From Candidatus Latescibacterota bacterium (GTDB lineage Bacteria > Latescibacterota > UBA2968), in NCBI GenBank assembly GCA_965198115.1, contig OZ240241.1, forward strand, positions 4,064,001-4,128,000: 64,000 bases of DNA, read 5' to 3'. Every line of letters starts with the position of its first letter. The first letter of the stretch is position 1. The position numbers were made by a program, and so were the translations under genes. The notes below the pieces were generated by a model. The model was not told the DNA's origin and did no database searches. It was given only the letters and a program-made list of their open reading frames with translations. Below, in pieces: positions 4,520 to 27,393 of the stretch.

Positions 4520-5935
4520 TCAGCACTCGAGCCTCTTTCGCTCGGCTTCTACCTCTTCACACCATTCCTCCAGCTCAGACAGCATCCTGGCAGCGCGCTC
4601 TGGTTCGCGTTCGGCTAGGTTGTCTGCTTCCGCACGATCCGATTCGACATCGTAGAGCTCGATCGGAAGAGGATCGGGAATGGTGCGCTCCGGCTCCGGG
4701 TCGGTCATCAGGCGAACGCGTTCCGGATGGTATTTGTACTCGATGTCCAGTTCGACGTAGCGCGCCATAAGCTCAGCCGAACGATCGTTCGCAGGTGGCA
4801 TCGTCAGAGCCGGCCGAATGAGCTTGAAACACCCGTCCCGTATCGCTGCGTTCGAAGTGTAGACGGGTTCGCTCCCACTCCACTGCCAGAACCGCATCGG
4901 TGGCTCCGACACCTCCCCACCGCACAGCACGTTCTGTTGATTCTGCCCATCGATTGGCCGCGTTTCAGGCAACTCGACGCCCGCCATCGCGGCCAGTGTG
5001 GGAAACCAATCCGTAAAGTGGATCAGATCCGTGACCTCGCGGTCCGACTCGAGACCATCCGTCCATCGCACGATCATCGGAACACGGATTCCACCCTCGT
5101 AAACCGAGCCCTTCCCTGCTCGCAACCCCGCATTTGGTCGACGTGTATCCGTCGACCAACCTTCCGGCACCTGATCGTCACGAAGCCTCATCGCGGGCCC
5201 ATTGTCGCTCGTGAACATCACGATCGTGTTGTCTGCAACCCCGAGCTTTTCCAGCTCCTCCAGAACCTGCCCAACACCCGCGTCCATCACCTCGATCATC
5301 GCATAAGTCGCCGCAATCTGCTCTGAGTGACCCGCCTCCCGATAACTTTACTGCCACATCCGCCGGTGCCTGAAGCGGCGAATACGGGGCGTTGTAGGGC
5401 AGCATCATAAAGAAAGGCTCTGCCCGATGCTGTCTCACGAATGCGATCGCCTCATCCGTCAACACATCCGTCAGGTAGCGCCCGTCCGACCGCTCGCGCC
5501 GGCCGTTTCGCTCGACCCACCAGTCCCAGTAGTCCATCCACCCGCCCCGGAACCCGACGAACGTATCGATCCCCGAGCATTTGGATGGTAGCGGTCATCG
5601 AGCGCACCGTTGTGCCATTTCCCAATCAGCCCTGTCGCATAACCGCCCTGCTTGAAAACATCCCCGATCGTTGCTTCGTCCAACGCGATGCGATCCTTCC
5701 CCCGCACTTCCTGTGGCGACAGAGCGCCAGTTCTGTGGGCGTATCGCCCCGTCAGCAGCGAAGCGCGAGCAGGCGAACAGACCGGCGATCCGGAGTAGTG
5801 TTGAGTCAGGCACAGACCTTCCCCAATCAGCGCGTCGAGATGCGGGGTCCTCACCCGCCCCTCGCTGAACGCCCCAAAATCACCGTAGCCCATGTCATCG
5901 GCCACGATCAGGATGATGTTTGGTTTAGTCGCCAA
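4520..5935 (-). CDS. Arylsulfatase A-like sulfatase, two apparent frameshifts (~5570, ~5340)
   Basis: KPNIILIVADDMG, CSPAR formylglycine motif, GKWH, FTSDNG, YEGGIRVP spread over three ORFs (5471-5935, 5178-5537, 4520-5299). Confidence 0.88.
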
Positions 5936-7661: not shown

Positions 7662-9584
7662 TCAGTTCTTGATGAACAGTTGTTCGTGAAAAACGGGCCG
7701 GCTCCACCCCATGTAGGCGTCTTCCGTCGTCACCTCTTCGGGCACGTTCCCCAGCCGCGTGCCGGATCCCCAGACTGGCGTCACGAAGCCGGCGTTGATG
7801 AACGGGACCTCTTCCGTCACACGGTCGCGTACCTGCACCATTTTCGATAGGACCTCTGCGGGGTCGATCGTCGCACCCGCCTCCTCGATCCATCGCGAAA
7901 GCTCGTGGAGCCAGGGTGGGCCGACCGATGCCGCATTCCTGTGCCAGAAGGGACGATTGGGGCCCGTGATCGCCCATTGATGCCGATTGATCGACGGGTC
8001 GCTCGGCAAGCTCCTCCCCCAGAAGACATCGAAGTCACCCGCATTTCGTCTTGGAAGAATGATGTCACGCAAAGCGATGTTCAGGCTCACGTCGATCCCG
8101 AGCGCGCGCCACTGCTCGGCAACGAGTTCGCAGACGTCGATGCCCATGCCGGATATAACATCGATCGTGATCGCAAACCTCGTACCGTCGGCAAACTCTC
8201 GGAAACCGTCCCTGTCCCCGTCCACCAGTCCGGCCTCGTCGAGCAACGCCCTCGCCTTTGCCGGATCGTACGCTGCATAGGTTGGCATCAGGCTCGGGTC
8301 GTGGTAGACGCTGGAAGGGCCGAATGTCGTACCGGCAGGTTCCAGAAGTCCGTGATAGACGATCTGACCCAGCTCTTCCCGATCGATCCCGTGCGACAGC
8401 GCCATCCGCACGCGTCGATCCCTGAAGGCGTGTGCCAGCGCCTCTCGGGGCGCATCCCAGTTGAGGTAAAGAACCGACGCAGGCACGGGAGCTGCGAATC
8501 GCAGCTTGAACTTGCCGTCCCGCTCGGCGGTCTTCAGCGTCGAATACATGTTGATCTGCGCGTATCGGCCGAAAAGATCGATCTCCCCATTCATGAACTT
8601 GAGCAATATGACCTGAGGATCGAGTATGATGTTGAAGACGATTCGATCCGCGTAGGGCAGCTGATTGCCTTCTGAATCTATTTTGAAGTAGTAGGGGTTC
8701 CGCTCATAGACGACGCGTTGACCGCGTACCCATTCGACCGGGACCCACGGAGACAATCTTGGGAGGTTCGGCTTCAGAATCAGCTTCCCGGCCGTCGTGC
8801 TGTCCCTGAAGCCTTCGTACGTCGCATCCGGATTGTACTTGGGGTGGAGAGACGACAGAATGTGCTTCGGATAGGCGATCCAGTAATTGCTGACGAGGTC
8901 GAGGACCCGTCCGAGGGGCTTATGTGACGTCACCCTGAGCGTAAGGTTGTCGACCTTGGACATCTGAACTGGCTGACCTTCAACCAAAAAGTTGCTCGGG
9001 AAGAGCGGCCGGCTTCGGGCGTCGTCGTTCACCAGCATGTCGTCATACCAGAACAGAATGTCATCGACCGTGAACGGGACGCCATCCGACCATTTGATCC
9101 CCTTTCGAATCCGGAAAATAGCCGTCCTTCCCTCATCCTCGAACGAGTAGCTCTCCGCCAGATTGGGCACGATCCGTTTGGACAGATTCGGACGCTCGTA
9201 GTCCATCAGATTCTCGGTCAGCGTCTTGATCAGCCCGGGGGTCTGAACGATGTCCCCCGTCAACGCCCGTTTGAGCTCTCCACCGTAGCGTCCGATCTCC
9301 TCCACGGGTACGATCACGACAGGATCATCAGGCAGTCTGTCGGAAACGGGCGGCAGACGACCCTGGCGGACACGTTCGGCCAGCATCGGGGCCTCACCGA
9401 ACCGCCGCTCCTCCAGAACCCTCGGATCGATCGTCAGCGGTGCGGTCATCTGACCGACACTCTGGTCTCGCCCAGCGGTGGCGAGACCCGCAATCTCCGT
9501 CTTGCGAACCGGGTTGTCAGGCAGACACCCGTAGGAGAGCGAAAAGACCGTCACGATCACCGCCCTGCAAATCCAGATCATCAC
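7662..9584 (-). CDS. ABC transporter substrate-binding protein, family 5 (peptide/nickel), probable lipoprotein
   Basis: EAPMLAERVRQGRLPPVSDRLP, RKGIKWSDGVPFTVDD, RNPYYFKID..GNQLPY; lipobox-like LSYGC. Confidence 0.92.
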   Translation of the reverse strand: MMIWICRAVIVTVFSLSYGCLPDNPVRKTEIAGLATAGRDQSVGQMTAPLTIDPRVLEERRFGEAPMLAERVRQGRLPPVSDRLPDDPVVIVPVEEIGRYGGELKRALTGDIVQTPGLIKTLTENLMDYERPNLSKRIVPNLAESYSFEDEGRTAIFRIRKGIKWSDGVPFTVDDILFWYDDMLVNDDARSRPLFPSNFLVEGQPVQMSKVDNLTLRVTSHKPLGRVLDLVSNYWIAYPKHILSSLHPKYNPDATYEGFRDSTTAGKLILKPNLPRLSPWVPVEWVRGQRVVYERNPYYFKIDSEGNQLPYADRIVFNIILDPQVILLKFMNGEIDLFGRYAQINMYSTLKTAERDGKFKLRFAAPVPASVLYLNWDAPREALAHAFRDRRVRMALSHGIDREELGQIVYHGLLEPAGTTFGPSSVYHDPSLMPTYAAYDPAKARALLDEAGLVDGDRDGFREFADGTRFAITIDVISGMGIDVCELVAEQWRALGIDVSLNIALRDIILPRRNAGDFDVFWGRSLPSDPSINRHQWAITGPNRPFWHRNAASVGPPWLHELSRWIEEAGATIDPAEVLSKMVQVRDRVTEEVPFINAGFVTPVWGSGTRLGNVPEEVTTEDAYMGWSRPVFHEQLFIKN

Positions 9585-10075
9585 AAGCCTCGTCGGGATC
9601 TATTCCATTACCCATTGCACAGCGCGGGGAGAAGCGACCGGCGCCATCTCCCCGCGTTGAAACATCCTCGGCTGCGACTCCGGACGGGACGCCCGGTATC
9701 GCCTTACGACGTCAACTGTCCGTTCAGCAAGTTCTTGAGGTCGATCGATGAATCGATCTCGGGTTGTGCAAACCACTCCGGCCAGTATTCCTCTGCCCGC
9801 TCGTTGATCTTGTAGTCGATGCTCTCGAACGCTGCTTTCACGTCTCGGATCAAGGTCAAGGTCTCGCGTGAGGTTCATCGCGAGCAGGCGGCATCAAGAC
9901 CAGAGGAGGTGTGGAGATGAGCGAACGAAGTGTGGAAAGGAGGTCAGCCGAACATCTCAGTCAGGCGGGAAATCAATCGGTACGAACGGGAAGACATCGG
10001 ATATGCAATGGAGGCAGGAGGGATGAACGCGAGGAATCCGATTGGAGACACAAGCCGGCTGAAGCCACGGAAGGT

Positions 10076-10190
10076 CTATATGGGGATCGGGCCGGCGAAC
10101 GTCTCGAGCAACGCATCAAGTTCCAGGAGTCGCACGGGCTTGTAAAAGTACGTCCATCCCGGGCATGCGGATATCGATCAGATCCACGTA
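10076..10190 (-). pseudogene. Remnant of a response-regulator receiver gene
   Basis: Minus strand reads YVDLIDIRMPGMD, then in another frame YKPVRLLELDALLETFAGPIPI*, matching the receivers at 22.5 and 24.8 kb with the middle deleted. Confidence 0.6.
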
Positions 10191-10275
10191 TCACACGCCT
10201 GTAGCACGCAGCAACAAGGTCGATTAGCTGCAATCATTGTTATCACTATTTTAGGACGGATGCGCGTTCTTCGAA

Positions 10276-12247
10276 TCAGTTGCGGACCGGCCTTGCGTTG
10301 AAAGCCTGCTCGGTGAGGTCCGACGTTTGATTTTCGATCTCGACCTGTGGGAGAGCGATGGTGACCCTCGTCCCCTCGTTCTCCGAGGAGTGGACGTCCA
10401 TCGTCCCGCCGAAGTCCTCGACGATCGTCCTGGAGATCGACAGTCCGAGGCCAGTCCCTTTGTCGGGGTCCTTGGTCGTGAAGAAGGGATCCCAGATCTT
10501 CACGAGAATCTCCGGCGGGATGCCGCAACCGTTATCGGCAACCTCGATACCGACCTCCGGACCCGCGTCACCGGAATTGATGTAGGTGCGCACGGAGATG
10601 CAGGGCGACCGACCGTTACGGCTACCCTCGAAGGCATCGTGTGCGTTGTTCATCAGGTTGATGAGAACTTCCTCGAGGGAATATGGGTTGGCAAGAACAG
10701 GGGGCAGGTTCTCTGCCAGGTCGGCCTCGAGCGCCACGTCGTGGGACCTGAATTGGGCCTGGAGCAGGTCCATCCCCGAAGAGACAACTTCGTTCACGAA
10801 AACCGGCGAAACGTCGGGCTTGCCTGCTTCCCGGGCGAACATACGGATGTGGTCGATGATGTGGACCATGCGGTCTGCCTGTTCGACGATGCCGGAAAGA
10901 CGATCCTTCATCTTGTCGTTCGTCACACTCCATCCACGATCGAGTGAAATAAGCAGGTGCTCGGCCAATCCCCTTACCCACGAGCGGCTGGTTGAGCTCG
11001 TGGGCAATACCGGCGGCCATTTCTCCGAGAGATCGCAGTCGGTCAGACCGCATGGCAAGTGCCTGCTGTGCTTCAAGCTCACTTTCCACTTTCCGACGGA
11101 CCTCCTCGGTACGGGCGTGTTCCTGGATTTCCAGCCTCAGTTCCTTGGTCCGGTCAGCGACGCGATCTTCCAACGTTCGATTGGCGTCCTCGAGATCTCT
11201 GTAAACGGATTGCAGATTCTCCGCCATCAGATTGTAGGATACGGCCAGACTACCTATTTCATCCTCAGTTCGGACCGTGACCCTGCCATCCAGATTCCCG
11301 GAGCCGAGTTGCTCCGCGGCATCCCTCAACTCGAGGATGGGCCGGCTCACTTTCGCCGAAACCCACATGCCAAACACAAGCGTCAGGATCACAGCCAGGA
11401 AGCCCGACATCAGGACCGACGTTCTGACGACGGCAACCGCGCTTTCGGCTTCGTCGGCGTCTTGGAAGAAGACTGTGAGTCCCGCGTCGGAAAACGGAGT
11501 CGCCTTTGCATAGCAATCGACCCCGCCGAGGGTGACACGCACGGGCGCCGTCTCATCGGTATTCGCGTCATCGAACAGATCCAGCAGCACGTCTACGTCC
11601 CCGTCGGACAGGACCAGGTCAGGTCGGTCTGAAGCAGTCCCGATCACGTGCCCCTGATAGAGGATCAGAATGTCCTTGTCGGTCGTTTCCCTGACCCGTT
11701 TTGCATAGGCGTCATTCAGTTGTTGGCCAAGGCAGAGGTATCCTAGAATCTGATTCGCAATGATGACCGGCGCGACCGCGACGCTGTAATGCCCATCTTC
11801 GTAGGCCCAGATGTCGGCGGACGTCTGACCGGACTGATTGACTATCATGGCGGAAGAGCCGAAATCTTCGCCGATGCGACGCGGCCTATCGGCGTCTGCG
11901 AGTAGCGACTCGCCGGCGTCCAACACCAGCATCAGATCGACGTCGCTTGCTGCGTGTAGTTCTCTAGCCGTGTAAAGAACCGTGTCGTGGTCAACATCCG
12001 GGATGCTCAAGACCGCCTTTAAGTAGGGTGTCTGTGCAACCGACCGAGCTTTGGACGTGAGAAGATCGGTTTGGAGGTGGCTGAGTTGAGTGTAGGCCTT
12101 CTCCGCTGTCCCCAGGTTGCGGGCAAGCTCCTCCTGCCCCATTCTCTCCATCAGTCCACCCGTCAAGAAGATCGAGAGCAGAATGAAGCTCAGCGAGACA
12201 CTGACCATGCCCAGAAAGAGCCTCGACCTGATACTCAAGCGCCTCAC
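10276..12247 (-). CDS. Sensor histidine kinase (TM-periplasmic-TM-HAMP-HisKA-HATPase), apparent 2-bp frameshift at ~10976
   Basis: Two TM segments, HAMP (RPI.EL..AA..LG.G.L...DEIG.LA..YN.M), AHELNQPL H-box, NLMNNA, DNGCG, DPFFTTK, GTGLGL. Confidence 0.9.
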
Positions 12248-13259
12248 TCAATATTTCCCCGAATAGGGTTGTCCGAATTTATTCGTATGCGCAATCAGCT
12301 TCTTGTCCTCGAGAATCGTAAACGTCTGGAATGTGGTGGATCGATTCGAGACGGATAGACGCTTGCGCTGTTCTTTCCCGTACTCGTGCCAGGTTCGGAG
12401 CACATATTCTCCATCCGGCACGTCGGATATGACGAAGAGACCTCTTCGGTCTGTCAGCGCGAAATACGGATTGTCCAGGACGATGATGTTCGCAGTCATT
12501 TGTCCGTGCATGTTGCAGTAGACCTTGACCCAACCGGGTGTTGAGAACGTGACCGATTTCGATTTTCCCGGGCGGTAAATGTCGAGGTCGAAAGGTTTGG
12601 ACTTTGAAAGAGAGAAGACATTGTGAAAGATCGTGTCATCATTCGGAAAATCGACGGTCGTGCCTCTCGTGACCGGAAGAACCCTGGGGGAGAATTTGCG
12701 GCCTTCCTGTGATATCGAGGGCTGGATCACTGGCCTCGGCCATTCGGTTCCAGTCTTCACGCGATCCAAAAAGACGACCACATTCGATCGGTCCTCCCGC
12801 TCCCCACCATCCATCTCCAGAATCTTGACCTCCTCCGGCGATAACGTTCGCCCTGCCCGGGTAGCGACCCGCTCTGTCGGTTGCGTTTCTGAACTTCACG
12901 TGGCAGGACACGCAGGTTCGACGCATTTCACCAACGATCTGGGACGCTCGCTGCTGCTGCTTTGCAGCCGCGGCCGTCAGATCGGAAAATCTTCGCTCCA
13001 GATCCCCAGCATAGCCTTTGAAGACATCGATCAAATCTTCGTTGATCTGCGGTGCAATGTTGGCCAATGAATCGACCGTCCCTTTCATCCGCGTGGTCGA
13101 ATCCAGCAACGTGTCGAAGTCACCTTCGTCAAGCGCCTTCTCAACCAGCCTCAGATCACCAGCGAGTGATGCCATCGCGTGTTTGCTTGGGCCAGGATTC
13201 ATCTCATAGCCTTGGGCGGCCACGAGGCAGCAGAGCATCAGTTGGATCAGTACGGTCAT
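12248..13259 (-). CDS. Probable cytochrome c' (CxxCH) - cupredoxin/carboxypeptidase-regulatory-like fusion protein, apparent +1 frameshift at ~12832
   Basis: Signal peptide, helical domain ending CVSCHVKFR; downstream domain with FPNDDTIFHNVFS and YCNMHGQM copper ligands; removing one G gives continuous NVIAG-EVKILEMDG. Confidence 0.72.
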
Positions 13260-13270
13260 TGCGTTCGGTC

Positions 13271-14602
13271 CTAAAAGGAAACCACGACTTCAAGGGCACT
13301 GAAATTTCTGTCGTCATCACCTGGCCGCAGAGGAGAGGCGTCAATGACCTCATAGCGATCGAGACCCACTTCCAGCTTTATGGCTACTCGCGGATTCGCT
13401 CGCCACCCGGCACCGACCGAGAATCTTTGGAGTCGCTTTGCGTCGTAGCCGAAGGCCTGATTGCCACCTGCCAGGAACTCGCCACCAAAGTGGTAGCCTG
13501 CGTTCGAATCATAGGTTCCGATCTCACTGTAACGGGCGACGACCCACAGATCGTGCCTAACGAAGAAGCGAGGCTGAACCATGAACCACGTGAGGTCCCT
13601 GTCGAAAGAACGGTCCTCGTCGTTGACGAACGCTCGTCCATAGGAGAATTCGAAGTCCAGCTTTCTGGATGCCTTGACCTTCGCGTAGCCCTCATAGAGA
13701 AGCGCGTCCACCATCTTGCTGGGACTTTGCCCGAGGGCGGATTCGCCCCATACGCCCACCGGCTGGAAGAGGCTCCCACCGAGTATCAGAGCGCTTGCTG
13801 CCGTCGCTCCGTTCTTCATGACGCTTGCACTGAGATAGAGGGGCGTCCACGGTGTACCGTAGAGCTTGAAGCTGACCGCCTTCGCAGGGTCGTCTTCAAC
13901 GCTTCGAGCGATGGTACCATCCATCATGGACGCAACCCATCCGATCCCCCTCAGCTTGCCATACAAAACCAGACCTTCGTCCCATAGCCAGGGGTAGGCC
14001 GCGGAATTGGAGATCAACGGATTGTCAGGCGCATCCTGCCACAGGTATTCCTCGCCAAAGGGGATGTCCACACGACCCACCTTGACGCTCAGAAGATCAT
14101 CCCCCCACCTTCGCAGGACATTGCGAAAGTGCGCGTAGACTTCCCCCGTACTCACAGATTGGCTGTTGTCCCTCTGAAGTGCGTTGGTCTGGATTTCAAA
14201 GAAGAATGAAATGTCATCCCACGCATTCGCCTCGACGAACAGTGTCGTTTCTTTGATCACGAAACCCGGTTCGGGTCGAGTTCCATCGCTTCCAGAATCG
14301 GCCAGCCAAAACGCGCCGAATCCCGAAACGCTGAGGTTTTGATGCCAGGGCCGCGTAAAGACGGTCCCCGAAGACTCGGTCTCGGAAATCGAGGCAAGTT
14401 CCTCCCCTGACAGATCGACCGAGTCTTCTACCTCTACGGTGTCTCTGATCTCGAGGCGCTGTCTCAGCGCTTCGATCTGCAGCCTCAGTCGCTCCAGCTC
14501 CGCGAGTTCCTCCCGCGTGGTCGACTGTCCTTCAATGGTTTCTCCTGCAGACGCAACGACTGGACACAGAATCAGAATTGCGACGATAAGAGCCTTGCCC
14601 AT
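13271..14602 (-). CDS. Outer-membrane beta-barrel/porin-like protein
   Basis: Signal peptide, short coiled coil, alternating beta-strand pattern, KVGRVDIPFG motif, C-terminal Phe (LEVVVSF). Confidence 0.8.
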   Translation of the reverse strand: MGKALIVAILILCPVVASAGETIEGQSTTREELAELERLRLQIEALRQRLEIRDTVEVEDSVDLSGEELASISETESSGTVFTRPWHQNLSVSGFGAFWLADSGSDGTRPEPGFVIKETTLFVEANAWDDISFFFEIQTNALQRDNSQSVSTGEVYAHFRNVLRRWGDDLLSVKVGRVDIPFGEEYLWQDAPDNPLISNSAAYPWLWDEGLVLYGKLRGIGWVASMMDGTIARSVEDDPAKAVSFKLYGTPWTPLYLSASVMKNGATAASALILGGSLFQPVGVWGESALGQSPSKMVDALLYEGYAKVKASRKLDFEFSYGRAFVNDEDRSFDRDLTWFMVQPRFFVRHDLWVVARYSEIGTYDSNAGYHFGGEFLAGGNQAFGYDAKRLQRFSVGAGWRANPRVAIKLEVGLDRYEVIDASPLRPGDDDRNFSALEVVVSF

Positions 14603-14663
14603 TGGGTTTCCTTTCGTAATCCGGTCGGTGTGGCCTTCGCGTTGATACTCAGGTCACCAGACT

Positions 14664-14679
14664 CGCAAAACGTGTACCA
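14664..14679 (-). promoter_or_regulatory. Sigma54 (-24/-12) promoter for the porin-cytochrome/cupredoxin-kinase operon
   Basis: Minus strand TGGTAC-ACGTT-TTGCG, exact consensus spacing, ~60 bp upstream of the ATG at 14602. Confidence 0.75.
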
Positions 14680-14829
14680 ACCGTTGGGGACCGGACAAAC
14701 CGCGTAAAACGAGGCCATACGGGTGCACGGGCAACGTCGAAACACGCAACCTTAGCCAAAAGTGCTAGCACGTCTGGTGGACGATGCAGGATCGGATATC
14801 GAGCGTGGAGATTCTGAGAGAGAGGCGCC

Positions 14830-17800
14830 TTAGCCGGCGGCTTCCGACTGTAGGCTATGGGATCCAACGGCAGGAAGGGAAATCGTGACGGTGGTACCTC
14901 GACCATCTTCCGTGTCGATTTGGATGACACCGCCGAAATCCTCGATGATCGCTCTGGAGATCGATAGTCCAAGCCCGGTTCCTTTGTCAGGATCCTTAGT
15001 CGTGAAGAATGGATCCCAGATCTTCGAAAGAACATCGGGCGGGATGCCGCTGCCGTTGTCTTCGACTTCGATGCCGAGCGGGCGAGCTTCCCCGGCATTG
15101 AAGGACGTGCGAACCGAGATGCGGGGCTCCGCTCCATTACTGCTATTCACCACCGCGTCGCGCGCGTTGTTTATCAGGTTGATCAACACTTCCTCGAGGG
15201 AAAACGGATTGGCAAGCACAGGAGGCATGTCCTCAGCGAGATCGACCTTGAGGACGACATCCTGCGACCTGAGCTGCGCCCCCACCAGGCCGATCCCCGA
15301 GGAAACGACCTCATTTACGGTAACCGAAGACGAATCCGGTTTCCCAGCTTCACGAGCGAATCTACGGACGTGGTCGATAATGTGGACCATCCGGTCGGCC
15401 TGCTCGACGATGCGTCCAACGCGGTCCCTCAGCTTGTCATCCGAAACCTTCCATCCTCGGTCCAGAGAAATCAGAACGTGCTCGGCCAGGCCACGAACAC
15501 CCACCAGGGGCTGGTTCAGCTCGTGGGCGATGCCTGCCGCCATTTCTCCGAGAGACCGCAGACGGTCAGCCCGAAAGATCAGACTTCGTTGGGTTTCCAG
15601 TTCCGTCTCAGCGGCCCGTCGAGCTTCGATCTGGTTCTTCAACTTCTCGTTCGCATCATTGAGGTGCCGGGTCCGTAGCATCACGCGGTTCTCTAGGTCA
15701 CGCTTGGCGTGACGCAGCTGGAAATGCATCCTCGTGGTCCGTATACCCAGCCCGACGATGACAAGAAATGCGATCGAGCCGCCCACGATCAGGCTCTGTT
15801 TCGCTCGAGAAAATTCCAGATGTAGAACCGTCGTGGCCTCGTTCGACCATCTGAGGTCCCGATCGATGAACTGCACTTCGAAGACGTATTGCCCACTACT
15901 CAGATCCGCATATTCCACGCGGCGGCTCCTCGTGGTCGACCAGGCGTCATCGAGTCCAACCAGACGGTAGCGGAAAAGTAGATTTCGGGGGTTTGTCTTG
16001 AAACTGATCCCCTCGAATTGGAAGGTTACCAGTCCTCCCTCCGGCGCCAAGACCCGAGAGGCGTCGCGGTAATGTCGATCGGCGATCACGGATCGGATGG
16101 CCGCAGTGGATGTCGATCCAGGATTCGGCCGGAATCGTGTCAGCCCGCCGTGGGTCGTGATCCAGTAGGCGCCTTCGGCGTCCTGCACCAGGCCTTCGAC
16201 CACATTGCTCGCCAGCCCGTCTCGTTGTGTGAGGCTGGCAAAGGCTTCACCATTAAACCGAGTCAAGCCGTTCTCTGTCGCGAACCAGAGATGGCCCCCC
16301 CGATCCTCGTAGATCGATTCCACTTCGTCCACCACAAGGCCGTTTCGGGCGGTCCAGGTCTGAAACGTCTCCCCATCGAACCGACTCACACCTCCATCCG
16401 TGCCGACCCACAGGGCTCCGTCTCGACCTTCCAGCAACGACTCTACCTCATTGTCCGGTAACCCGTCCCGATCAGTAAAAATGCGCCACTCGGCTCCGTC
16501 AAAACGACAGAGACCTTCATCCGTTCCCGCCCAGAGGTTGCCTTTGCTGTCCCCCAGAAGGCATTCGACTTTGTCGTGCGGCAGGACGTTTCGAGAATCG
16601 AATGCGGTGAATCCTCGCCCGTTGAAACGAAACAGCCCCCGATCGAAGGTCCCGAACCAGACGTTCCCTGCGCGATCCTCGGCAATGGACTCGATCTCGG
16701 CACGCTTCAATGCGTCACTCGCTGGGAAGGGAAGAAACCGGCGGCCATCGAAAAAGAAAGGACCGCTTTTGGTACCAATCCAAATTCTGCCCTTGCTGTC
16801 CTCGAACACTGGCTCGACGCTGCTCGAGGGAAGATTCTCCGGAAGGTCATAAGTGACAAATGTGTTTCCATCGAACCGCGTGACGCCGGCGTTCGACGAA
16901 ATCCAGAAGTCCCCATTTCGATCTACAAAAATCTGGTCCAATTCATCCAGAGGAAGGCCGTCCTCAGTCGTGTAGGTCACGAATTCTTGCCCACGATATT
17001 GGCTTAGTCCATCCTGAGTCCCAACCCAGAGGGCGCCCTCCCTGTCGCGCTTCAGGGAAAGGACCCCTGCAACAGGGCCGCCAGGAACGCGGGTCGTATG
17101 TTCACCATCGAACCGAAACAGCCCATCGGCTGTTCCTACCCAGACGGTGCGTCCCTCGTCCTCGACAATCGAAGTTACACGAAGTCCGTCCAATTCCAGC
17201 GGAAGGACGGTCCACACTCCTTCCCCACCCACTTGCCATACGCGGTCGGAATCGGTTACCCAAACGCCACCGTCTCTCGCGAGTCCTACAATCGCAACCG
17301 GAGCGTTCGCTACTCCAAGCGTTAGGTTGAGATCTTCGAGACGACCGTCGCTCATTCGGTAGAGACCCAAGTCGGACCCGAACCAAACCGAGCCCGATCG
17401 ATCTTCGATGATCACGTTTACCGGGACGGACTCGAGTCCAGTAACGACCTTGAAAGTGATTCTTCCTGCTTGCTCCAATCGAGCAGCGCCTCGGGCCATC
17501 CCCACCCAAAGACGTCCGGACCGGTCCTTGTGGAGCGCGCGCACCTCCTCTGAAGGCAAACCGTGTTTGCCACTGAGGTTGGTAGAGCCGCCATCAACAC
17601 GTCTGAACACACCCGAATCGGTTCCAACCCACAACTCACCTGAACCTCCCGGCAGGATCGCTCTTACACTTGTGTCGGCGAGCCCATCTTCCCGCGATGA
17701 TGTAGCAAAGGATCGGCCGTCGAAACGCGTGAGGCTCCCACCAGCGGCGAGCCACAGGTACCCCGTGCTATCCTGTACGATCGAGGTCACAGAACCACTC

Positions 17801-17940
17801 GGAAGTCCGTCACCCCTACCGAAGTGTCGCCAATGACCGCCGAGCTTTCCGACACGGAATCCTGTCGCTTGTTTCGCAGCATCCGCAGCCCCTGCTACCA
17901 GAAAGACCGAGACAATCGCCAGAAACGCCAGAGACCGCAC
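14830..17940 (-). CDS. Beta-propeller (Reg_prop/Y_Y_Y) sensor histidine kinase
   Basis: Many DGLP.....I.ED..G.LW.GT..GL repeats, YRYRL.G.D..W-type Y_Y_Y domain, TM, AHELNQPL, HATPase; start approximate (GTG 17940, after the upstream stop at 17969). Confidence 0.92.
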   Translation of the reverse strand: MRSLAFLAIVSVFLVAGAADAAKQATGFRVGKLGGHWRHFGRGDGLPSGSVTSIVQDSTGYLWLAAGGSLTRFDGRSFATSSREDGLADTSVRAILPGGSGELWVGTDSGVFRRVDGGSTNLSGKHGLPSEEVRALHKDRSGRLWVGMARGAARLEQAGRITFKVVTGLESVPVNVIIEDRSGSVWFGSDLGLYRMSDGRLEDLNLTLGVANAPVAIVGLARDGGVWVTDSDRVWQVGGEGVWTVLPLELDGLRVTSIVEDEGRTVWVGTADGLFRFDGEHTTRVPGGPVAGVLSLKRDREGALWVGTQDGLSQYRGQEFVTYTTEDGLPLDELDQIFVDRNGDFWISSNAGVTRFDGNTFVTYDLPENLPSSSVEPVFEDSKGRIWIGTKSGPFFFDGRRFLPFPASDALKRAEIESIAEDRAGNVWFGTFDRGLFRFNGRGFTAFDSRNVLPHDKVECLLGDSKGNLWAGTDEGLCRFDGAEWRIFTDRDGLPDNEVESLLEGRDGALWVGTDGGVSRFDGETFQTWTARNGLVVDEVESIYEDRGGHLWFATENGLTRFNGEAFASLTQRDGLASNVVEGLVQDAEGAYWITTHGGLTRFRPNPGSTSTAAIRSVIADRHYRDASRVLAPEGGLVTFQFEGISFKTNPRNLLFRYRLVGLDDAWSTTRSRRVEYADLSSGQYVFEVQFIDRDLRWSNEATTVLHLEFSRAKQSLIVGGSIAFLVIVGLGIRTTRMHFQLRHAKRDLENRVMLRTRHLNDANEKLKNQIEARRAAETELETQRSLIFRADRLRSLGEMAAGIAHELNQPLVGVRGLAEHVLISLDRGWKVSDDKLRDRVGRIVEQADRMVHIIDHVRRFAREAGKPDSSSVTVNEVVSSGIGLVGAQLRSQDVVLKVDLAEDMPPVLANPFSLEEVLINLINNARDAVVNSSNGAEPRISVRTSFNAGEARPLGIEVEDNGSGIPPDVLSKIWDPFFTTKDPDKGTGLGLSISRAIIEDFGGVIQIDTEDGRGTTVTISLPAVGSHSLQSEAAG

Positions 17941-19005
17941 GACGGAAGGAACCGTTCCCAGCCAAGCTCTACCCGCTGGTCGGCAGAATGACGGCAACTG
18001 TCGTTCCCTTTCCCGGCTTGCTGTCGACTGTGAGGGTTCCGCCAAACTCTTCCACGATGCCCTTCCGAGATCGACAGCCCCAGACCCGTCCCCTTGTCGG
18101 GGGCCTTGGTGGTGAAGAAGGGATCCCAGATTCTGGTAAGAAGGTCATCGGGGATCCCGCAGCCGTTGTCCCCAACTTCGATTCCGACCTTGGGCTGCGC
18201 ACCCTCGGCCTCGAGGTAGGTGCGCAGGGAGATACGCGGAGCCGAACCGTTCTGGCTTCCTTCCACGGCGTCACGCGCGTTATTCATCAAGTTGATCAGG
18301 ACCTCTTCGAGCGAAAAAGGGTTGGCCAGAACATTGGGCAGCTCTTCCGCTAGGTTGGCTTCGAGCGCAACCCCGTGCGACTTCAACTGGGCACCCAGCA
18401 GATCGATGCCAGAGGAAACGACTTCGTTCAAGGAAACCGGACACAAATCGGGCTTTCCGGCCTCTCGGGCGAACATCCGGATGTGATCGATGATGTGAAC
18501 CATGCGATCAGCCTGTTCGACGATGCGCCGGACACGATCTCTGAGCTTGTCTTCCGAAACCTCCCACCCTCGATCGAGGGAAATCAGAACGTGTTCGGCC
18601 AGTCCGCGAACACCCACGAGGGGCTGGTTCAGTTCGTGAGCGATGCCCGCGGCCATCTCTCCCAGGGATCGCAGCCGGTCGGATCGGATGCTGAGCGCGC
18701 GTTGCGCTTCCAGCTCACGTTCCGCGTTCATTCGCGCTTCGTCCGCCTCGATGCGCTGCGTGATGTCCACGAGTGAACCCACGATTTCCGTCGGTCTGCC
18801 GTTCTGGTCCCTGACCAGATGGGCCTGATCGTGAACCCATCGATACGCACCCGATTTGTTTAGGATTCGGTAGGCGTGGGCGTGCTGGTTTTTCGTGAAG
18901 ATTCCCGGGAATTCACCCATCACCCGGGGCAGATCCTCCATGTGGATGTTGTCGATCCAAAACGTCTCGTCGGACAAGACTTCATCCGGCTGATACCCGA
19001 GCAAC

Positions 19006-20382
19006 GAGCTACAATCAATAGGTGTGGAAAAATAGAAAAGGCGACCCTACACTTCCCGTGAGATAACAATATCCACGAAATACCGGGTTCACAGGCCCGG
19101 TGGGAAGGAGGATCGCCGTGGGAAAACATAAGTCGAAGTCCCCCTCGTTGTCCATGCCGACGTGGGAAACCCTTGAGGGGTGGTTGCGTAAGGAAATCGA
19201 GGTTCGCATTCAGTCCATCGTTGAGGAGGAAGTGACCCAGTTCCTCGGACGCGGGTGGTATGAGCGCAAAGAAGCCGTAGATGCAGGATCCGGTTATCGC
19301 AACGGCTATGGGAAGCTGCGGCGATTGTCGACCTCTTGCGGCACGATCCAGATCAAGCGGCCCCGTGTTCGCGGTTTGGAGGAGCGCTTCGAGAGCAGGA
19401 TTCTGCCGTTGTTCGCTCGGCGCACGAGAGAGGTGGGGGAACTGCTCCCGGAGCTCTATCTCCACGGTCTGTCTCAGGGCGACTTCGAGTTGGCCCTGCG
19501 AGGGCTTCTCGGTGATGGGGCTCCGCTCTCCCCCTCGTCGATTGCTCGCCTCCGCGGTCAATGGGAGGTTGATTACCAGACCTGGCAGGAACGACGCCTG
19601 GACGATCGTGAGCTCGTGTATGCCTGGGCCGATGGGATCTACGTCAAAGCCGGACTTGAGAAAGATAAGGCGTGTCTGCTTGTCGTGATCGGCGCCATGA
19701 GTGACGGCCGCAAAGAGGTTCTGGGCCTGGTGCCTGGGTATCGCGAGTCGACCGAGTCCTGGCTGGCTGTCCTTAGAGACCTACGGGATCGCGGCTTGGA
19801 TCACCCCATTCTGATGGCGGCCGATGGCAATATGGGCATCTGGTCTGCCGTCGATCAGGTCTGGCCGCACACCCGTCAGCAGCGGTGCTGGAACCACAAG
19901 ATTCTCAACGTCCCGGACCAGATCCACAAACGTCAGCAGCCTCAAGCTCGTGCACTGCTCGTCCAGATTCCCTATGCCAGCACGCGTCAGGATGCGGAGA
20001 AGCTGCGCAAGCAGTTCGTCGCACGATATCGCAACGAGTTCCCGAAGGCGGTGGCAACACTCGAACGGGATTGGGATAGGATGCTCACCTTCTTCGATTT
20101 CCCAGAAGAACACTGGCGCCACCTGAGAACGACCAACATCGTCGAGAGCCCCTTTGCATCCGTGCGGTTACGAACCAACGCCGCCAAACGCTACAAGAAG
20201 GTCGTCTCGGCAAGCGCTCTCATCTGGCGAACACTGATGGTCGCCGAGAAACGCTTCCGGCGACTCAATGCACCCCATCTGTTACACGTTGTTTATGCAC
20301 AGCACAACCAAACTATGACCACAATCGACTCCGGGAAGAAGCTGGCCGCCTGATCTATTTACACACCTCTTGACTCGACCTC
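19006..20382 (+). mobile_element. IS256-family insertion sequence
   Basis: Imperfect terminal IRs GAGCTACAATCAATAGGTGTG / GAGGTCGAGTCAAGAGGTGTG; 8-bp target duplication CGAGCAAC at 18998-19005 and 20383-20390. Confidence 0.95.
19100..20353 (+). CDS. IS256-family (mutator-type DDE) transposase
   Basis: YRNGY, LYLHGLS, YAWADG, ADG, QRCWNHK, LRTTNIVES motifs; intact ORF. Confidence 0.96.
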   Translation: MGRRIAVGKHKSKSPSLSMPTWETLEGWLRKEIEVRIQSIVEEEVTQFLGRGWYERKEAVDAGSGYRNGYGKLRRLSTSCGTIQIKRPRVRGLEERFESRILPLFARRTREVGELLPELYLHGLSQGDFELALRGLLGDGAPLSPSSIARLRGQWEVDYQTWQERRLDDRELVYAWADGIYVKAGLEKDKACLLVVIGAMSDGRKEVLGLVPGYRESTESWLAVLRDLRDRGLDHPILMAADGNMGIWSAVDQVWPHTRQQRCWNHKILNVPDQIHKRQQPQARALLVQIPYASTRQDAEKLRKQFVARYRNEFPKAVATLERDWDRMLTFFDFPEEHWRHLRTTNIVESPFASVRLRTNAAKRYKKVVSASALIWRTLMVAEKRFRRLNAPHLLHVVYAQHNQTMTTIDSGKKLAA

Positions 20383-21654
20383 CGAGCAACCCTTTGACAT
20401 TTTCGCTGACGAACGTAAACACCATTTGATCGTCCGGCCGACAGCTGTAGATGACGGCGGGGCTCGTGTCCAGCAGGTGCTGGAGCCTGCTTCGTGTGGA
20501 ACTCAACTGCTCCCGTACACGCTCTCGGTTCGCAAGTTCTCTTCTTCTCATCGAATAAAGGACGGCCAAGAATCCGACAAGCCCGAATCCAGGCAGGAAC
20601 ACGTAGCGAGCAAGTGCCCCCCACAACCGCCGGCTCTCCGCCCGATCCGTCGCCGGCCCTGTCCACCTCAGATCCCCGACCGCACTGCCAGAAGGTCCCG
20701 CAGTCAAGAACTTCGACGAACTCAAGAGGGAGAAATCTCCAGACTCTGCATCGAAATAGTGGGGGTCGGCGCTGAAACAGCAGTCCATGCTCGGACCGGT
20801 GTTGAAGTTCTTTCGGTTGTCATAGGTACAGATGGCCATCCTCTGGGCCTTAGGGTGGCTGAGCAACGCGTAGCTCCGGCAGCCCGTAAGAATGCTGCTG
20901 GAGATCAGAGCATCGGGAACGGCAAGAATGTCGACCCCGTCATAGGCGTTGTGTACGGTGATGTGAGAGATCCTGATTCGCACGGGAATTCGCACCCTGT
21001 CGACCTTGATCGCAGATTCGCCCAGATAGGAGAAGGTGCAATTCTGAATCTCGAGATACCGAACTTCATCTGGCCGCCTGAAGTCCACCGCCACCTGGCC
21101 AATGTTGTAGAAGAGCGTGTTGGTGATCACACAAGTGAGTGAGGTCCCACCCTCACCGGATACCCCTGCGACGACAAATCCGTCGATCTCACAATTGTCG
21201 ATGATGAGCTTCCGGGGTACGGCGGACACGCTACGGATAGCTCGTTGCGTGACGTTGGCCCCGGTCAGCCGGACACCACGAAGCAACAGGTCGCCGCGAG
21301 CGGAGAGATGGCTCTTCCCTTCGGTTCGCCAGACCGGGCGGTCCGACAGATCGGGATCGACGATCAGACTGAGAGCAACGTCCGGGCAAAACAACCTGAT
21401 CCGACTCGTGATAGATGCCGCTCGATACGATTACGAGCGTATCTCCGGCCGCCGCCAATCGGGCCGCCCGACTGATCGTATTGGTGCCTGACCGAATCGG
21501 GATAACCCGGGCGTGAGTGTCACGGCCCAGACAAGCGCGACCAAACACATCAGTGCTATTCCGGTCATTCTGCGCCGCTTTCCAAGTTGCACGTGCACAT
21601 CTTTCATCGTCGCTCCGCAGGTCACCAAGCCATGACGCATCTTGCGAAGTTCAC

Positions 21655-22425
21655 TCATGATGCAGTGCCGCTCCGGCTTTCACCACGCGTCGAGTTCTCC
21701 CGCTTGATCTGTTCCTTCTGCCAGACGTAGTCGACTTCACCCTTATAGAAGGCCAACGGCGTCTCTACCGCCCAGAGCTGCTTCCGGATCACCCAATTGT
21801 CAGGATCGAGATGGACTGCTGCCCTCAGCTCCACGAGTGCTTCCGCTCGATTATTTTGCTCCAGAAGTTGGGTCGCCCGCTGAAACCGTTCGTCCGCCTC
21901 CTGCTCCCTCGACGAGAGAGGGTGTGGAATCTCGGGTCTGTTCGATTCGGACCAGGCCGCCGGGATCGTTCCCGTCAGAACCCATTCCAGGAGTTCGGCA
22001 CTGAAATCAGACTCGTCGATGTTGACAGGTCCGATTGACTTGGCGAGAAGACCTTCTTCATCCAGGAGGATGCCGACGGGGACATACTTAAGGTTGAAGA
22101 CCTTGCCGATCACGTTGTGCTGGTCTAGAAGACTGGGGAACGTAGCGCCAGCCTTTTGAACCCAGGGCTTCGCCGCTTCAGCCCCTTGCGCGTCCTGCGC
22201 GATCGAGACGATCTGGACCAGGCCTTTGTGAGACTCGTGAAAGGACTGCCATCCAGGCAGCTGGCTGCGGCACCCTCACCACGATGCCCACACGAAGAAC
22301 ACAGTCCTCTTTCCGATGAATTCGTCCGATGTAACGAGATCTCCTTCGAAGAGATCCGGCAGGCTGATCGCTGGTGGCTTATCCCCGATCCCGAATCCCA
22401 ACCGGCCTTCTTGCGTGGTGTCCAT
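21655..22425 (-). CDS. Selenocysteine-containing TlpA/ResA-like thioredoxin-fold protein (WASW-U-GC) with C-terminal TPR-like region, 256 aa
   Basis: ATG 22425 reads MDTTQ...TVFFVWASW-TGA-GCRSQLPGWQ in frame through to ORF 21655-22113; TGA (22276-22278) sits at the redox-active Cys position; cis-Pro motif YVP present. Confidence 0.88.
22237..22279 (-). promoter_or_regulatory. Candidate bacterial SECIS element
   Basis: CTGCC-tggat-GGCAG hairpin with G-containing loop 20 nt after the UGA; GTGAGGG can pair with CTTTCAC as a lower stem. Confidence 0.65.
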
Positions 22426-22497
22426 CCCAATGCTTCCTTCCGTCAATGTTGCGGGGAGATTCAGGCACGAGAAAGTGTCATCGAGAGTATGGCTTCT

Positions 22498-22863
22498 TCA
22501 GATAGCACTCATTGGTGCCAGCTCGACGGCTTCCAGGACTTGATCCAGATCCAGCAATCGGATGGGCTTGACCAGGACAGTCAACACGTCCTCAGGTGGA
22601 CCCTGACTGGCCAGATCCACGTGGCCGCTGATGGTGACAAGGGGCAGATCGTGAGATTTCCCATTGATCTTCCGGAGGAGTTCCTCTCCGTCAAGACCCG
22701 GCATTCGCAGGTCCACAAAAGCGAGATCGAAGCTTCTCAGGTCCAGGATGTCCAGGGCAGCCTGTCCGTCCATAGCGGTCTCCACCCGATGCCCGCACTC
22801 GGCCAGGTATTCCCCGATGGTTTCGTGCACGATTTCCTCGTCATCCACGATCAATATTCTCAC
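22498..22863 (-). CDS. Single-domain response regulator (CheY-like receiver)
   Basis: ILIVDDE, FVDLRMPGLDG, ISG, KP. Confidence 0.92.
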   Translation of the reverse strand: MRILIVDDEEIVHETIGEYLAECGHRVETAMDGQAALDILDLRSFDLAFVDLRMPGLDGEELLRKINGKSHDLPLVTISGHVDLASQGPPEDVLTVLVKPIRLLDLDQVLEAVELAPMSAI

Positions 22864-23267
22864 GGTTGTGCTCCTGCATCTGAGGGTAAAACGGCTTCGA
22901 CGCCGGCCGCGTCTTCGAGAAATCGCTCCAATTCTTGGAGTCTGAAGGGCTTCCCCAGAACCCCGATGGTGCCCAGCTGAGAAGCCCGATCTCTCAAATC
23001 GGAACTATAAAATCCTGCCATCAAGCAGACTCGAATGTGAGGCCACGATTCCCGGATTCGGTGTGTCAGGTCATACCCACTCATGCCCGTCATCTGGACA
23101 TCGACAAAGGCGATGTCATAGAGCGTGGCACGCAGCGCCGCCAAGGCGGCTTCGCCGTCTTTGACCGAGGTCACATCGTGGCCCAGGTCGTCGAGAAAGG
23201 TCGTCAACGTCTGTCGGACGATTTCCTCATCGTCCACGACTAAAATCTGCTTGCTGGAATGGCTCAT
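22860..23267 (-). CDS. Single-domain response regulator (CheY-like receiver)
   Basis: ILVVDDE, FVDVQMTGMSG, KPF; Ala in place of the usual Thr/Ser (LMAG). Confidence 0.9.
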   Translation of the reverse strand: MSHSSKQILVVDDEEIVRQTLTTFLDDLGHDVTSVKDGEAALAALRATLYDIAFVDVQMTGMSGYDLTHRIRESWPHIRVCLMAGFYSSDLRDRASQLGTIGVLGKPFRLQELERFLEDAAGVEAVLPSDAGAQP

Positions 23268-23305
23268 ATTCCCCGGTGGCTCCGACTGGTGATCCTAATA
23301 CACAC

Positions 23306-23321
23306 CGCAACAGCCGTGCCC
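23306..23321 (-). promoter_or_regulatory. Sigma54 (-24/-12) promoter for the receiver-selenoprotein-kinase operon
   Basis: Minus strand GGGCAC-GGCTG-TTGCG ~40 bp upstream of ATG 23267, preceded by an AT-rich tract (23335-23375, possible IHF region). Confidence 0.7.
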
Positions 23322-23455
23322 GAACGTGCTGAAGTCTATAACCCGTTCATAAACAGACTTTTAGTTCTATATAGTGTGGTCTGGCGAAAGTGCGTCGTTG
23401 AGTCAGGGTTAGCGATCCTTGACAGCAATAGATGACAACTCCGACTTCCCGACAG

Positions 23456-24820
23456 TCAAGCGATTTGGTACTTCTGAATTTTGTAGCGCAAGGTCGAATA
23501 GGGGATATCCAATGCAACCGCCGCCGCCTTACGATTCCACTTTGCTTCCTCGAGAGCAGTCAGGATCGAATCCCTTTCGCCAAAACTTTCCGATGGGATC
23601 ATCTTCGCTGTGGAGACCTTCGAGTGCCCATTGTGTCGACCCAGGTGGGCGGCATTAATGTCCCCGGATCTCGAAAGGATCGCTGCTCGTTCGATCATAT
23701 TCCTGAGCTCGCGTACGTTTCCCGGGAACGCGTAATCGAGCAGGTATTCTTTTGCATCCTGCGTCAACGATTTTTCCGAAACACCCCGTTGTGTTGCATA
23801 AACCGCAAGAAACTGTTCGGCAATGGGCATCACGTCTTCAGGGCGCTGATTCAAGGGTGCCAACTCGATCGGAAACACATTCAGTCGGTAAAACAGGTCG
23901 CTTCTGAATCTTCCTTCGGCGACCGCGTCTTCCAGCGGCGCATTCGAGGCCGCCACGACCGTGAGGTTCACGCTGATTTCCTTCGATCTGCCGACGCGTC
24001 TGAAGCTTCTCGTTTCCAGGGCACGGAGCACCTTGGCCTGGGCGTCGGCCGACAGGTCCGCGATCTCATCCAGAAAGAGCGTTCCGCCATCGGCCAACTC
24101 GAAATAGCCGGGTTTGTCCGTGGTCGCACCCGTAAAGGCACCCTTGGCGTGGCCAAAAAGCTCGCTTTCCACGAGGGCTTCGGGCAGAGCCGGGCAACTG
24201 ACCGGGATAAAGGGACGATCGGGGTTGCCACTCTTGAAATGAAGCTCTCTTGCGACGACCTCTTTGCCCGTACCCGTTTCTCCCGTGATCAGGACGGAAT
24301 CCACCCGTGCTTCGATGGCCAGATCGATCTGTTCACAGACTGACTCCGCGTTGGGACTCGCACCCATGAAACCGCAGGCGCTTTCCCTCAGGGCGCTGGA
24401 CTGGATCCCGCCGATCGTCTGTTTCAGATGTCGCTTGTCCTTCTCCAGACCACCGAGGCGAGCCACTTTTTCCAGAACCGCCTCGAGTTCCAGCAGCTTG
24501 ACTGGCTTGGGCAGGAAGTCAGCGGCCCCCGAACGAAGGGCTTCGATGACCATCTCCATGTTCCCGTGGCCCGTTATCATGACGATCGATGTTTCGGGGC
24601 ACGTTTTCCTAGCCCTCTCCAGGAGTTCCAGCCCGCTGAGACCCGGCATTTTGACATCGATGATCGCAAGGTCGTAGTCGTCCTTACCCAGTGCGATCAA
24701 GGCCGAGTCTCCTTCGCGGCAACTCTTGAACCGGTGCCCGCAATCCATCAGGTAATCGCCAATAGTCTCGTGAACGATCTGCTCGTCATCGACTAAAAGA
24801 ATGTTGAGTTGGCCCGACAT
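23456..24820 (-). CDS. NtrC-family sigma54-dependent response regulator (REC-AAA+-Fis HTH)
   Basis: Receiver, GETGTGKE Walker A, ESELFGHAKGAFTGA, LFLDEI, FRSDLFYRL, FPGNVREL, C-terminal HTH. Confidence 0.96.
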   Translation of the reverse strand: MSGQLNILLVDDEQIVHETIGDYLMDCGHRFKSCREGDSALIALGKDDYDLAIIDVKMPGLSGLELLERARKTCPETSIVMITGHGNMEMVIEALRSGAADFLPKPVKLLELEAVLEKVARLGGLEKDKRHLKQTIGGIQSSALRESACGFMGASPNAESVCEQIDLAIEARVDSVLITGETGTGKEVVARELHFKSGNPDRPFIPVSCPALPEALVESELFGHAKGAFTGATTDKPGYFELADGGTLFLDEIADLSADAQAKVLRALETRSFRRVGRSKEISVNLTVVAASNAPLEDAVAEGRFRSDLFYRLNVFPIELAPLNQRPEDVMPIAEQFLAVYATQRGVSEKSLTQDAKEYLLDYAFPGNVRELRNMIERAAILSRSGDINAAHLGRHNGHSKVSTAKMIPSESFGERDSILTALEEAKWNRKAAAVALDIPYSTLRYKIQKYQIA

Positions 24821-24871
24821 GTTTTCCTACTCCGGTTGGCGTTGAAAGTCCTTCAGCCTACCGTTACCTAT

Positions 24872-24887
24872 CGCAAACGGGGTGCCA
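24872..24887 (-). promoter_or_regulatory. Sigma54 (-24/-12) promoter upstream of the NtrC-type activator itself
   Basis: Minus strand TGGCAC-CCCGT-TTGCG ~50 bp upstream of ATG 24820. Confidence 0.78.
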
Positions 24888-25318
24888 AAACCCATTCGCT
24901 ACGACACAAAATTTATGACGGTTGCAAGTCGTTCTTTTGGTGAAGTTATGATCCTTCACTCCCCGGGAAATCGCCCCGTCACAAGAGGATCCGATAGGCT
25001 TCGGGTGGTCGATTTCAACCACAGAGAGGGATCACCTCCACACGTCGTAAGACAGGTCTTACAAAGTGTCGCTTATGTGGGTCGGATCGTCCTGATTTTG
25101 GCGGCGTACAAAGACACTCCAGGACCGGATCCCACGTGCGTTCGTGGTGTATTTCCATTTGCCCCTACACTCTTCTCCAGTCATTTTGGGCTGAGGAACC
25201 ACGCTCCCGCAGTCAATCGGATGGTTCACGACATCGATCCAGATGCCATCTGAATCGATGGACCCAACGCCTTCCTTAGACTGCAGGATGACCACACCAT
25301 TCGACCTGGAGACCCACG

Positions 25319-27358: not shown

Positions 27359-27393
27359 GTCCGCATCGTGACCCGCGACTTGTGAGACGAAAC

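Follow-up and report, generated by a model that had tools for sequence, protein, structure and literature searches.

The block at positions 10076..24887 of a 64,000-nt stretch of a Candidatus Latescibacterota bacterium genome (contig OZ240241.1, positions 4,064,001 to 4,128,000; the whole stretch is hereafter the window) is, as we can say with high confidence, a partly broken, decaying signalling cluster. On balance, we favour the reading that this was a two-component cluster in which a shared kinase helix fed swappable sensors to a single sigma54 activator, and that a set formed by a porin, a haem-copper protein and a dCache_3 receptor (hereafter, the module) reports periplasmic redox. The module occurs in many phyla of bacteria. 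The conserved unit of the module is a pair, a blue-copper protein (cupredoxin) and a dCache_3/HAMP receptor, while the barrel, the haem partner and the output vary by lineage.

Gene content and lesions of the block

All the genes named in an earlier reading of the letters alone (the sequence-only reading) are present on the minus strand, as are all features of the block below unless stated otherwise. The gene coupling it described (overlaps at 22860-22863 and 21655-21658 and abutment at 12247/12248) was borne out, as were its three sigma54-type sites, one in the upstream gap of each unit, at 24887, 23321 and 14679. That reading also took the region to be one co-oriented block with three working kinases, which does not hold, as a plus-strand IS256 element and frameshifts break two of the kinases. 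The intact genes are only those for the activator, two receivers, a selenoprotein, the propeller kinase and the porin; two of the three sensor kinases and the haem-copper protein gene are disrupted. By base composition, the block gives no signal of an island (GC content 0.55-0.60, against 0.59 for the genome).

The beta-helix/PAS histidine kinase (17978..21658) is broken by three of the five frameshifts, near 21520, 21385 and 18065, and by the insertion sequence (IS); these breaks were judged against an intact 996-aa homologue in genome G042, with those at 21520 and 21385 read by eye. The IS256 element (19006-20382, plus strand; transposase 19100-20353) sits in the first PAS domain of this kinase and is bounded by inverted ends and an 8-bp target duplication (18998-19005 and 20383-20390), and its transposase scores 292 bits against NF033543 (cut-off 150). 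The fourth frameshift, near 12833, falls in the cytochrome-cupredoxin gene (12248..13259) and parts the haem from the copper half; in a relative whose copper half is 90 % identical, both halves form a single 347-aa protein. The fifth, near 10977, falls in the dCache_3/HAMP histidine kinase, the receptor of the module (10276..12247), where the frame changes seven residues past the phospho-His, inside the His helix. Since the lesions break the PAS kinase and the HAMP kinase, one of the three kinases is left intact.

Every lesion recurs in contigs from two sequencing runs, X1 and X2, which agree with 9500-19035 and 20354-25200 in every letter, without a gap, and enter both ends of the IS; on this evidence sequencing error was rejected as the source of the frameshifts for the dominant allele, given that contigs drop rare variants. 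The decay of the block fits a genome-wide decay visible in IS256-like loci and truncated kinase frames. Seven near-identical full copies of this IS256 are present in the genome, the local one included, and the 58 kinase H-box frames comprise 37 that pass an intactness test, 8 that narrowly fail it, 5 that are possibly natural short forms and 8 that are apparently truncated, ending early and without ATP-binding boxes. Loss of mismatch repair was considered as a cause of the frameshifts and rejected, as mutS and mutL are both present. Across the complete 8.4-Mb genome, there are 167 IS256-like loci, with one family of 133 near-identical full copies.

A putative shared kinase-receiver channel

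The putative channel consists of an NtrC-type activator (23456..24820; receiver, AAA+ domain with GAFTGA and Fis helix-turn-helix), stand-alone receiver 1 (22860..23267, with Ala at the usual Thr/Ser position) and stand-alone receiver 2 (22498..22863), all intact, together with the three kinases, of which the beta-propeller histidine kinase (14830..18045; Reg_prop, Y_Y_Y; start codon uncertain) is the sole intact one. The receiver remnant proposed in the sequence-only reading was found at ~10094-10181 as two short pieces in different frames (E 2e-4).

The transmitters of the three kinases are mutually 74-76 % identical and share a His helix that occurs in no other H-box listed for the genome. 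In a quick tree of receivers (144 rows, 117 columns), the three receivers and 11 receivers from similar clusters of relatives form one branch (SH-aLRT support 96) that excludes the other receivers of the genome. At helix 1, receiver 2 matches the activator at 10/12 positions and receiver 1 at only 5/12. Because of the common His helix and the single receiver clade, the three kinases and the receivers can fairly be inferred to share partner specificity. The many-to-one wiring put forward in the sequence-only reading stands as an ancestral design, as one kinase clade and one receiver clade are found together in related genomes, and is unsupported as a working three-input system, two kinases and the haem-copper gene being broken; the propeller kinase would be the only kinase still able to drive the activator in the source genome.

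An activator orthologue is present in 7/167 genomes of the phylum and the kinase clade in 15/167. Of the seven activator-orthologue genomes, five have a same-clade kinase at a distance of ~2 to 5 kb, and as many as four such kinases lie inside 18 kb (three near the activator in G052, four in G102 and two in G108); in G157 the same-clade kinases lie on other contigs, and G100 has no kinase-clade match. Kinase and receiver specificity helices are conserved together among the relatives, and the sensors attached to the channel differ between genomes. The G052 cluster has a different barrel with a solute-binding-like protein and carries two IS insertions. In G042, a sigma54-like site accompanies the selenoprotein and the beta-helix kinase, and no activator orthologue reaches the threshold. 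On a contig represented by L017/L211, a sigma54 site and a frameshifted porin are found together with the activator, an intact fused haem-copper gene and an intact HAMP kinase; the selenoprotein was not found in the 36 kb of it examined. The congener G001 (95 % complete) has no match to the porin, the kinase clade or the activator, and only paralogues at 46-64 % identity were met when flank synteny was sought in relatives. The cluster appears as a lineage-specific kinase-activator channel that gains and loses sensors, here amid IS expansion. The clusters of relatives at L185:6817-8814, L187, L017:5944-8155, L213 and L214 have in common a receiver and a receiver-PAS kinase with an unusual H-box, a pair missing from the block in the window.

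The three sigma54-type sites were scored (maximum 8) with a scheme built from the -24/-12 consensus. They lie before the activator (24872..24887, score 6/8), before the receiver unit (23306..23321, score 6/8, starting GGG rather than TGG) and before the porin unit (14664..14679, score 7/8). The 8.43-Mb genome holds 1147 sites scoring at least 6, a rate that predicts ~0.04 sites for the three upstream gaps (595 bases together), where 3 were observed. RpoN is encoded in the genome. Among relatives, L017 has a score-8 site at the position equivalent to that of the porin-unit site, and G052 has a similar site 124 bases upstream of its activator orthologue, the only one of 8 orthologue loci with such a site; the remaining loci are mostly inside operons. 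No enhancer site or palindrome shared among the three promoters was found.

The haem-copper protein, the barrel and the receptor

The haem-copper gene encodes a class II cytochrome c, a type-1 copper cupredoxin and a beta-sandwich in one fused protein. The model of an intact fused relative (pLDDT 88.8) has the same three parts, the cytochrome with four helices; its beta-sandwich is barely covered by fold searches. Those with the haem domain returned cytochromes b562 and c' (c' fold, Z 12 to 14), and Foldseek matched the cupredoxin to amicyanin, pseudoazurin and plastocyanin. Among 120 relatives, the copper ligands His...Cys-x2-His-x2-Met are present in all 120 and CxxCH in 119, and 118 have one more His, at position 335; by ligands and fold, the cupredoxin part is a predicted type-1 copper site. 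The haem domain is a four-helix bundle with a C-terminal CxxCH, as in cytochrome c', and 119/120 relatives have an N-terminal Met that aligns with Met7 of cytochrome b562, the sixth haem ligand there, as in low-spin c556. Some cytochromes c' carry a Met that does not ligate haem. Because the Met is conserved at the b562 ligand position, the haem domain is likelier to carry electrons than to bind NO in the manner of a cytochrome c', and the same residue argues against the NO/O2 sensing that the sequence-only reading had assigned to it. A more distant cupredoxin-beta-sandwich paralogue with His/Cys/His/Met ligands lies elsewhere in the genome (G000:C1:8144520-8145253), in a cytochrome b/oxidase operon, with cytochrome b/c genes on one side and genes for cytochrome oxidase subunits on the other.

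The outer-membrane barrel (13271..14602) is intact and OprO/P-like by language-model features. It has no Pfam hit (PF07396 included); its Atlas clusters are named Phosphate-selective porin O/P at 0.98, with the family on 11 % of one cluster's members.

An alignment of 34 fused proteins was used to collect relatives, and we analysed the best 79 of at least 572 genome loci and the best 80 of at least 480 metagenome loci, duplicates kept. Of 8000 scored candidates, 7910 passed as relatives, members of the wider family that have no receptor being counted in. A receptor-profile match lies no more than 3.5 kb from the cupredoxin in 95/98 loci with enough downstream DNA, and in 42/45 of the held-out loci, which lay outside the receptor profile. 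None of the 152 receptor hits in the fetched loci lies away from a cupredoxin, a count that is biased because the loci were picked by cupredoxin. Of the 121,432 frames of the genome, the local receptor alone is matched by the profile. The porin is present in each of the 27 loci that have the cytochrome part, and the receptor in 25/27; the full fused gene occurs in 3/167 other genomes of the phylum.

The periplasmic domain of the receptor is modelled (pLDDT 94.8) as a double Cache fold like those of Tlp3, DctB and LuxQ, and a sequence search gave no solved relative below E 0.1. Outputs were assigned with Pfam from the C-terminal 520 residues of the 81 complete frames among 107 found: 26 are histidine kinases, 25 Ser/Thr kinases (4 with a cyclase domain), 21 SpoIIE phosphatases and 3 GGDEF or GGDEF-EAL proteins, and 6/81 gave no output domain. 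One HD-GYP form was also met.

The haem partner takes the form of the fused monohaem domain (27 loci), a five-haem cytochrome (6/6 checked) or a globin. Myxococcota loci have a BBP2-like barrel, the five-haem cytochrome and a MauG-like protein in the single upstream gene checked. On a Burkholderia plasmid, a DUF3034 protein and an exported truncated globin accompany an EAL protein, and the receptor profile hits the input domain of the latter (E 4e-20). Two further plasmid loci were seen, one with the receptor and without barrel or globin and the other, whose cupredoxin is more distant, without the receptor. Versions of the module occur in cultured strains, namely Chondromyces apiculatus (L049) and Burkholderia sp. 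THE68; the module has thousands of relatives, and its predicted coloured cofactors should be easy to assay. Two arrangements were observed besides: at L049:6989-13745 (cultured strain) and other Myxococcota loci, a MauG-like peroxidase, a BBP2 barrel, the cupredoxin, the five-haem cytochrome and a SpoIIE receptor form one run, and at L033:5688-12462 a single receptor is preceded by two cupredoxin genes that follow barrels of different families.

Proposed mechanism and alternatives

What the analysis establishes is which genes are present, how they are broken, what co-occurs, which metal ligands are conserved and how the models fold; the functional steps that follow are inferred. The exported protein would bind a Met/His-ligated haem c and a type-1 copper, and would trade electrons with a partner, whether donor or acceptor, that it meets at the barrel or by way of it. 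The periplasmic domain of the receptor would read the redox state of this protein, as the accessory protein is read in YfiR-YfiN, and the signal would run through HAMP to the attached output, here a kinase phosphorylating the activator. The stand-alone receivers may compete for phosphate.

A bolder extension, which we consider speculative and probably not correct as it stands, is that the cupredoxin-dCache_3 pair forms the core of an undescribed cross-phylum 'electron antenna'. Here, electrons would travel by way of an outer-membrane barrel and a haem carrier of exchangeable type (monohaem c556-like, five-haem or globin) to the blue-copper site, and the receptor, with five outputs attached, would switch according to whether that site is oxidised or reduced. 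If so, bacteria would read extracellular redox potential directly, rather than via quinones or gases.

Several observations weigh against the favoured reading. Control by sigma54 is not general, as a site precedes 4/31 porin loci, against 1/31 on the control strand, and because the genome encodes about eleven GAFTGA activators, self-activation of the local one is unproven. Many loci have no haem partner: CxxCH adjoins the cupredoxin in only 2/16 unfused porin loci. A globin as partner suits gas binding more than it does electron transfer, and neighbour clustering found no neighbouring barrel in the acidobacterial loci. As for the lesions, X1 and X2 derive from one sample, possibly the source sample, and no piece spanning a lesion was found in a second sample, X3, among the 8/20 pieces listed. 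The complex predicted, with alignments, for the receptor periplasmic domain and the cupredoxin of the L013 pair scored 0.00, which speaks neither for nor against the model.

Copper itself may be the signal, with the barrel admitting copper or a chelate, the receptor reading apo versus copper-loaded cupredoxin and the haem partners being accessory. This would suit the invariance of the cupredoxin-receptor pair, the conservation of the copper ligands (with the further His at 335) and the frequent absence of haem partner and barrel. However, no copper export or uptake cluster was found among the recurrent neighbours (of which some clusters were annotated), and three unrelated haem folds recur next to the pair, so we consider copper sensing unlikely.

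The barrel and the haem-copper protein might instead be a small electron-transfer or catabolic unit, merely co-regulated with a receptor that binds a small molecule itself. The receptor model does match the small-molecule dCache sensors Tlp3, DctB and PctA, and cupredoxins related to this one are also found in operons, respiratory or other, that have no receptor. Yet the absence of receptor hits without a nearby cupredoxin, in loci picked by cupredoxin, and the tight coupling retained over five output types make this improbable.

Slightly less probable still is the sensing of a gas or reactive nitrogen species through the haem partner, for which the exported truncated globin of the Burkholderia plasmid version and the cytochrome c' fold of the four-helix domain speak; the Met aligned with b562 Met7 points to a filled sixth site, and the version with five haems is not known to bind gases.

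Least probable is the system of the sequence-only reading, in which one activator under feedback today receives redox, NO/O2, copper and glycan signals from three kinases: the three sigma54 sites, the shared specificity helices and the L017/L211 cluster would agree with it, but the DNA has nearly refuted it already through the IS256 element and five frameshifts, reproduced in two runs, and the break inside the His helix of the HAMP kinase, and the selenoprotein occurs in 0/159 cupredoxin loci, so that the whole combination is unsupported as one conserved system. The full combination was found in none of the genomes examined.

Relation to described systems

The module appears to match the logic of YfiBNR with unrelated parts. 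In PMC3375315, YfiBNR is described with a conserved periplasmic-protein/receptor core, swapped outputs and an optional outer-membrane part, and the Pseudomonas aeruginosa system resembles the module in having an outer-membrane component, a soluble periplasmic protein and a HAMP receptor. The two have no sequence match: by Pfam and structure, the periplasmic protein of the module is a cupredoxin plus cytochrome and not YfiR, its receptor has a double Cache domain and its outer part is a barrel, whereas that of YfiBNR is a lipoprotein. We regard the module as a variant of accessory-protein sensing; the island as a working unit is unsupported.

LuxPQ likewise senses through a partner protein. The receptor model matches LuxQ periplasmic structures (E ~1e-8), but other dCache sensors match equally well, and LuxP is a solute-binding protein, unlike the haem-copper protein. 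Also related is the uncharacterised operon of DUF3034, truncated globin, 'methylamine utilization protein' and EAL protein, which has a homologous cupredoxin (E 3e-38) and a homologous receptor input domain (E 4e-20); it differs from the local module in its barrel family, in a globin in place of cytochrome c and in a cyclic di-GMP output in place of a kinase. The fused haem-copper form shows this globin/cyclic di-GMP operon to be one of several variants.

The MtrAB, MtoAB and Cyc2-rusticyanin conduits combine a barrel, haem and a blue-copper carrier in respiration, with no dedicated receptor. The module resembles them in these parts and adds such a receptor; no homology between its barrel and theirs was found in what was a shallow comparison only. 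Relative to the NtrB/NtrC and AtoS/AtoC sigma54 systems, the local system is alike in activator and transmitter domain architecture, but falls below all equivalog cut-offs and places several kinases and stand-alone receivers under one specificity code.

The module was undescribed in the literature searched, which comprised mostly titles and abstract openings, with subscription journals and supplements outside its coverage, and which does not establish absence from print; PMC11904497 contains none of the six neighbourhood terms looked for in it. The present additions are the c556-like fusion, the version with five haems, the wide range of outputs and the connection with a sigma54 channel. Redox sensing outside the bacterial inner membrane is poorly mapped, and the module would bear on it.

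The selenoprotein and neighbouring features

The selenocysteine (Sec) thioredoxin of the sequence-only reading (21655..22425) was corroborated by an in-frame TGA at codon 50 (22276-22278) and a tRNA-Sec in the genome. It is a ResA/TlpA-like thioredoxin with a TPR-like tail, a short form of the WAxxUGC family (motif WASWUGC), in which no hydrophobic segment was detected. Full-length matches with one in-frame TGA were found in 32/60 relatives, and the porin in 0/60 of the same set; the pairing of selenoprotein and kinase was seen in just two genomes.

A hairpin resembling a Sec insertion sequence (SECIS) lies at 22245..22261. The bacterial criteria given in PMC13188914 are a hairpin 16-37 nt after the UGA, a G in the first two loop positions and -7.5 kcal/mol or lower, and the local hairpin lies within them (20 nt past the UGA, G at loop position 2, -10 kcal/mol). 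Its folding energy is no better than that of shuffles (z -0.24). The same 15 nt recur in 10/12 sequences, with one double compensatory change and one loop-only change. An Rfam scan gave no match above cut-off.

SelA- and SelB-like frames, named by eye, lie beside the tRNA-Sec, which a 58 % identical paralogue of the selenoprotein adjoins; given this paralogue, the selenoprotein appears to be a lineage gene recruited into the block. The selA-like gene, the selB-like gene, this second WAxxUGC gene and the tRNA-Sec form one run (G000:C1:3585303-3590000), and the N-terminal part of the second WAxxUGC gene is apparently in a different frame. The local protein shares the WASWUGC motif and thioredoxin fold with the WAxxUGC ResA-like selenoproteins (NF041054; the 'UGC-containing TlpA' row in PMC13188914), but has 256 aa against the 354 positions of NF041054 (WAxxUGC_long), scores 132.1 bits, below the cut-off of 300, and, unlike them, stands before a kinase. 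No dedicated paper on WAxxUGC proteins was found in the literature searched, subscription journals and supplements being outside its coverage.

Elsewhere in the genome, 20 co-oriented tRNA genes lie within 2 kb (G000:C1:2870558-2872531), an arrangement typical of a mobile element. Outside the block, the window holds a sulfatase-like gene spread over three frames (4520-5935) and an additional PAS/hybrid kinase on the plus strand (27130-29285), which is in two frames and split near 28250.

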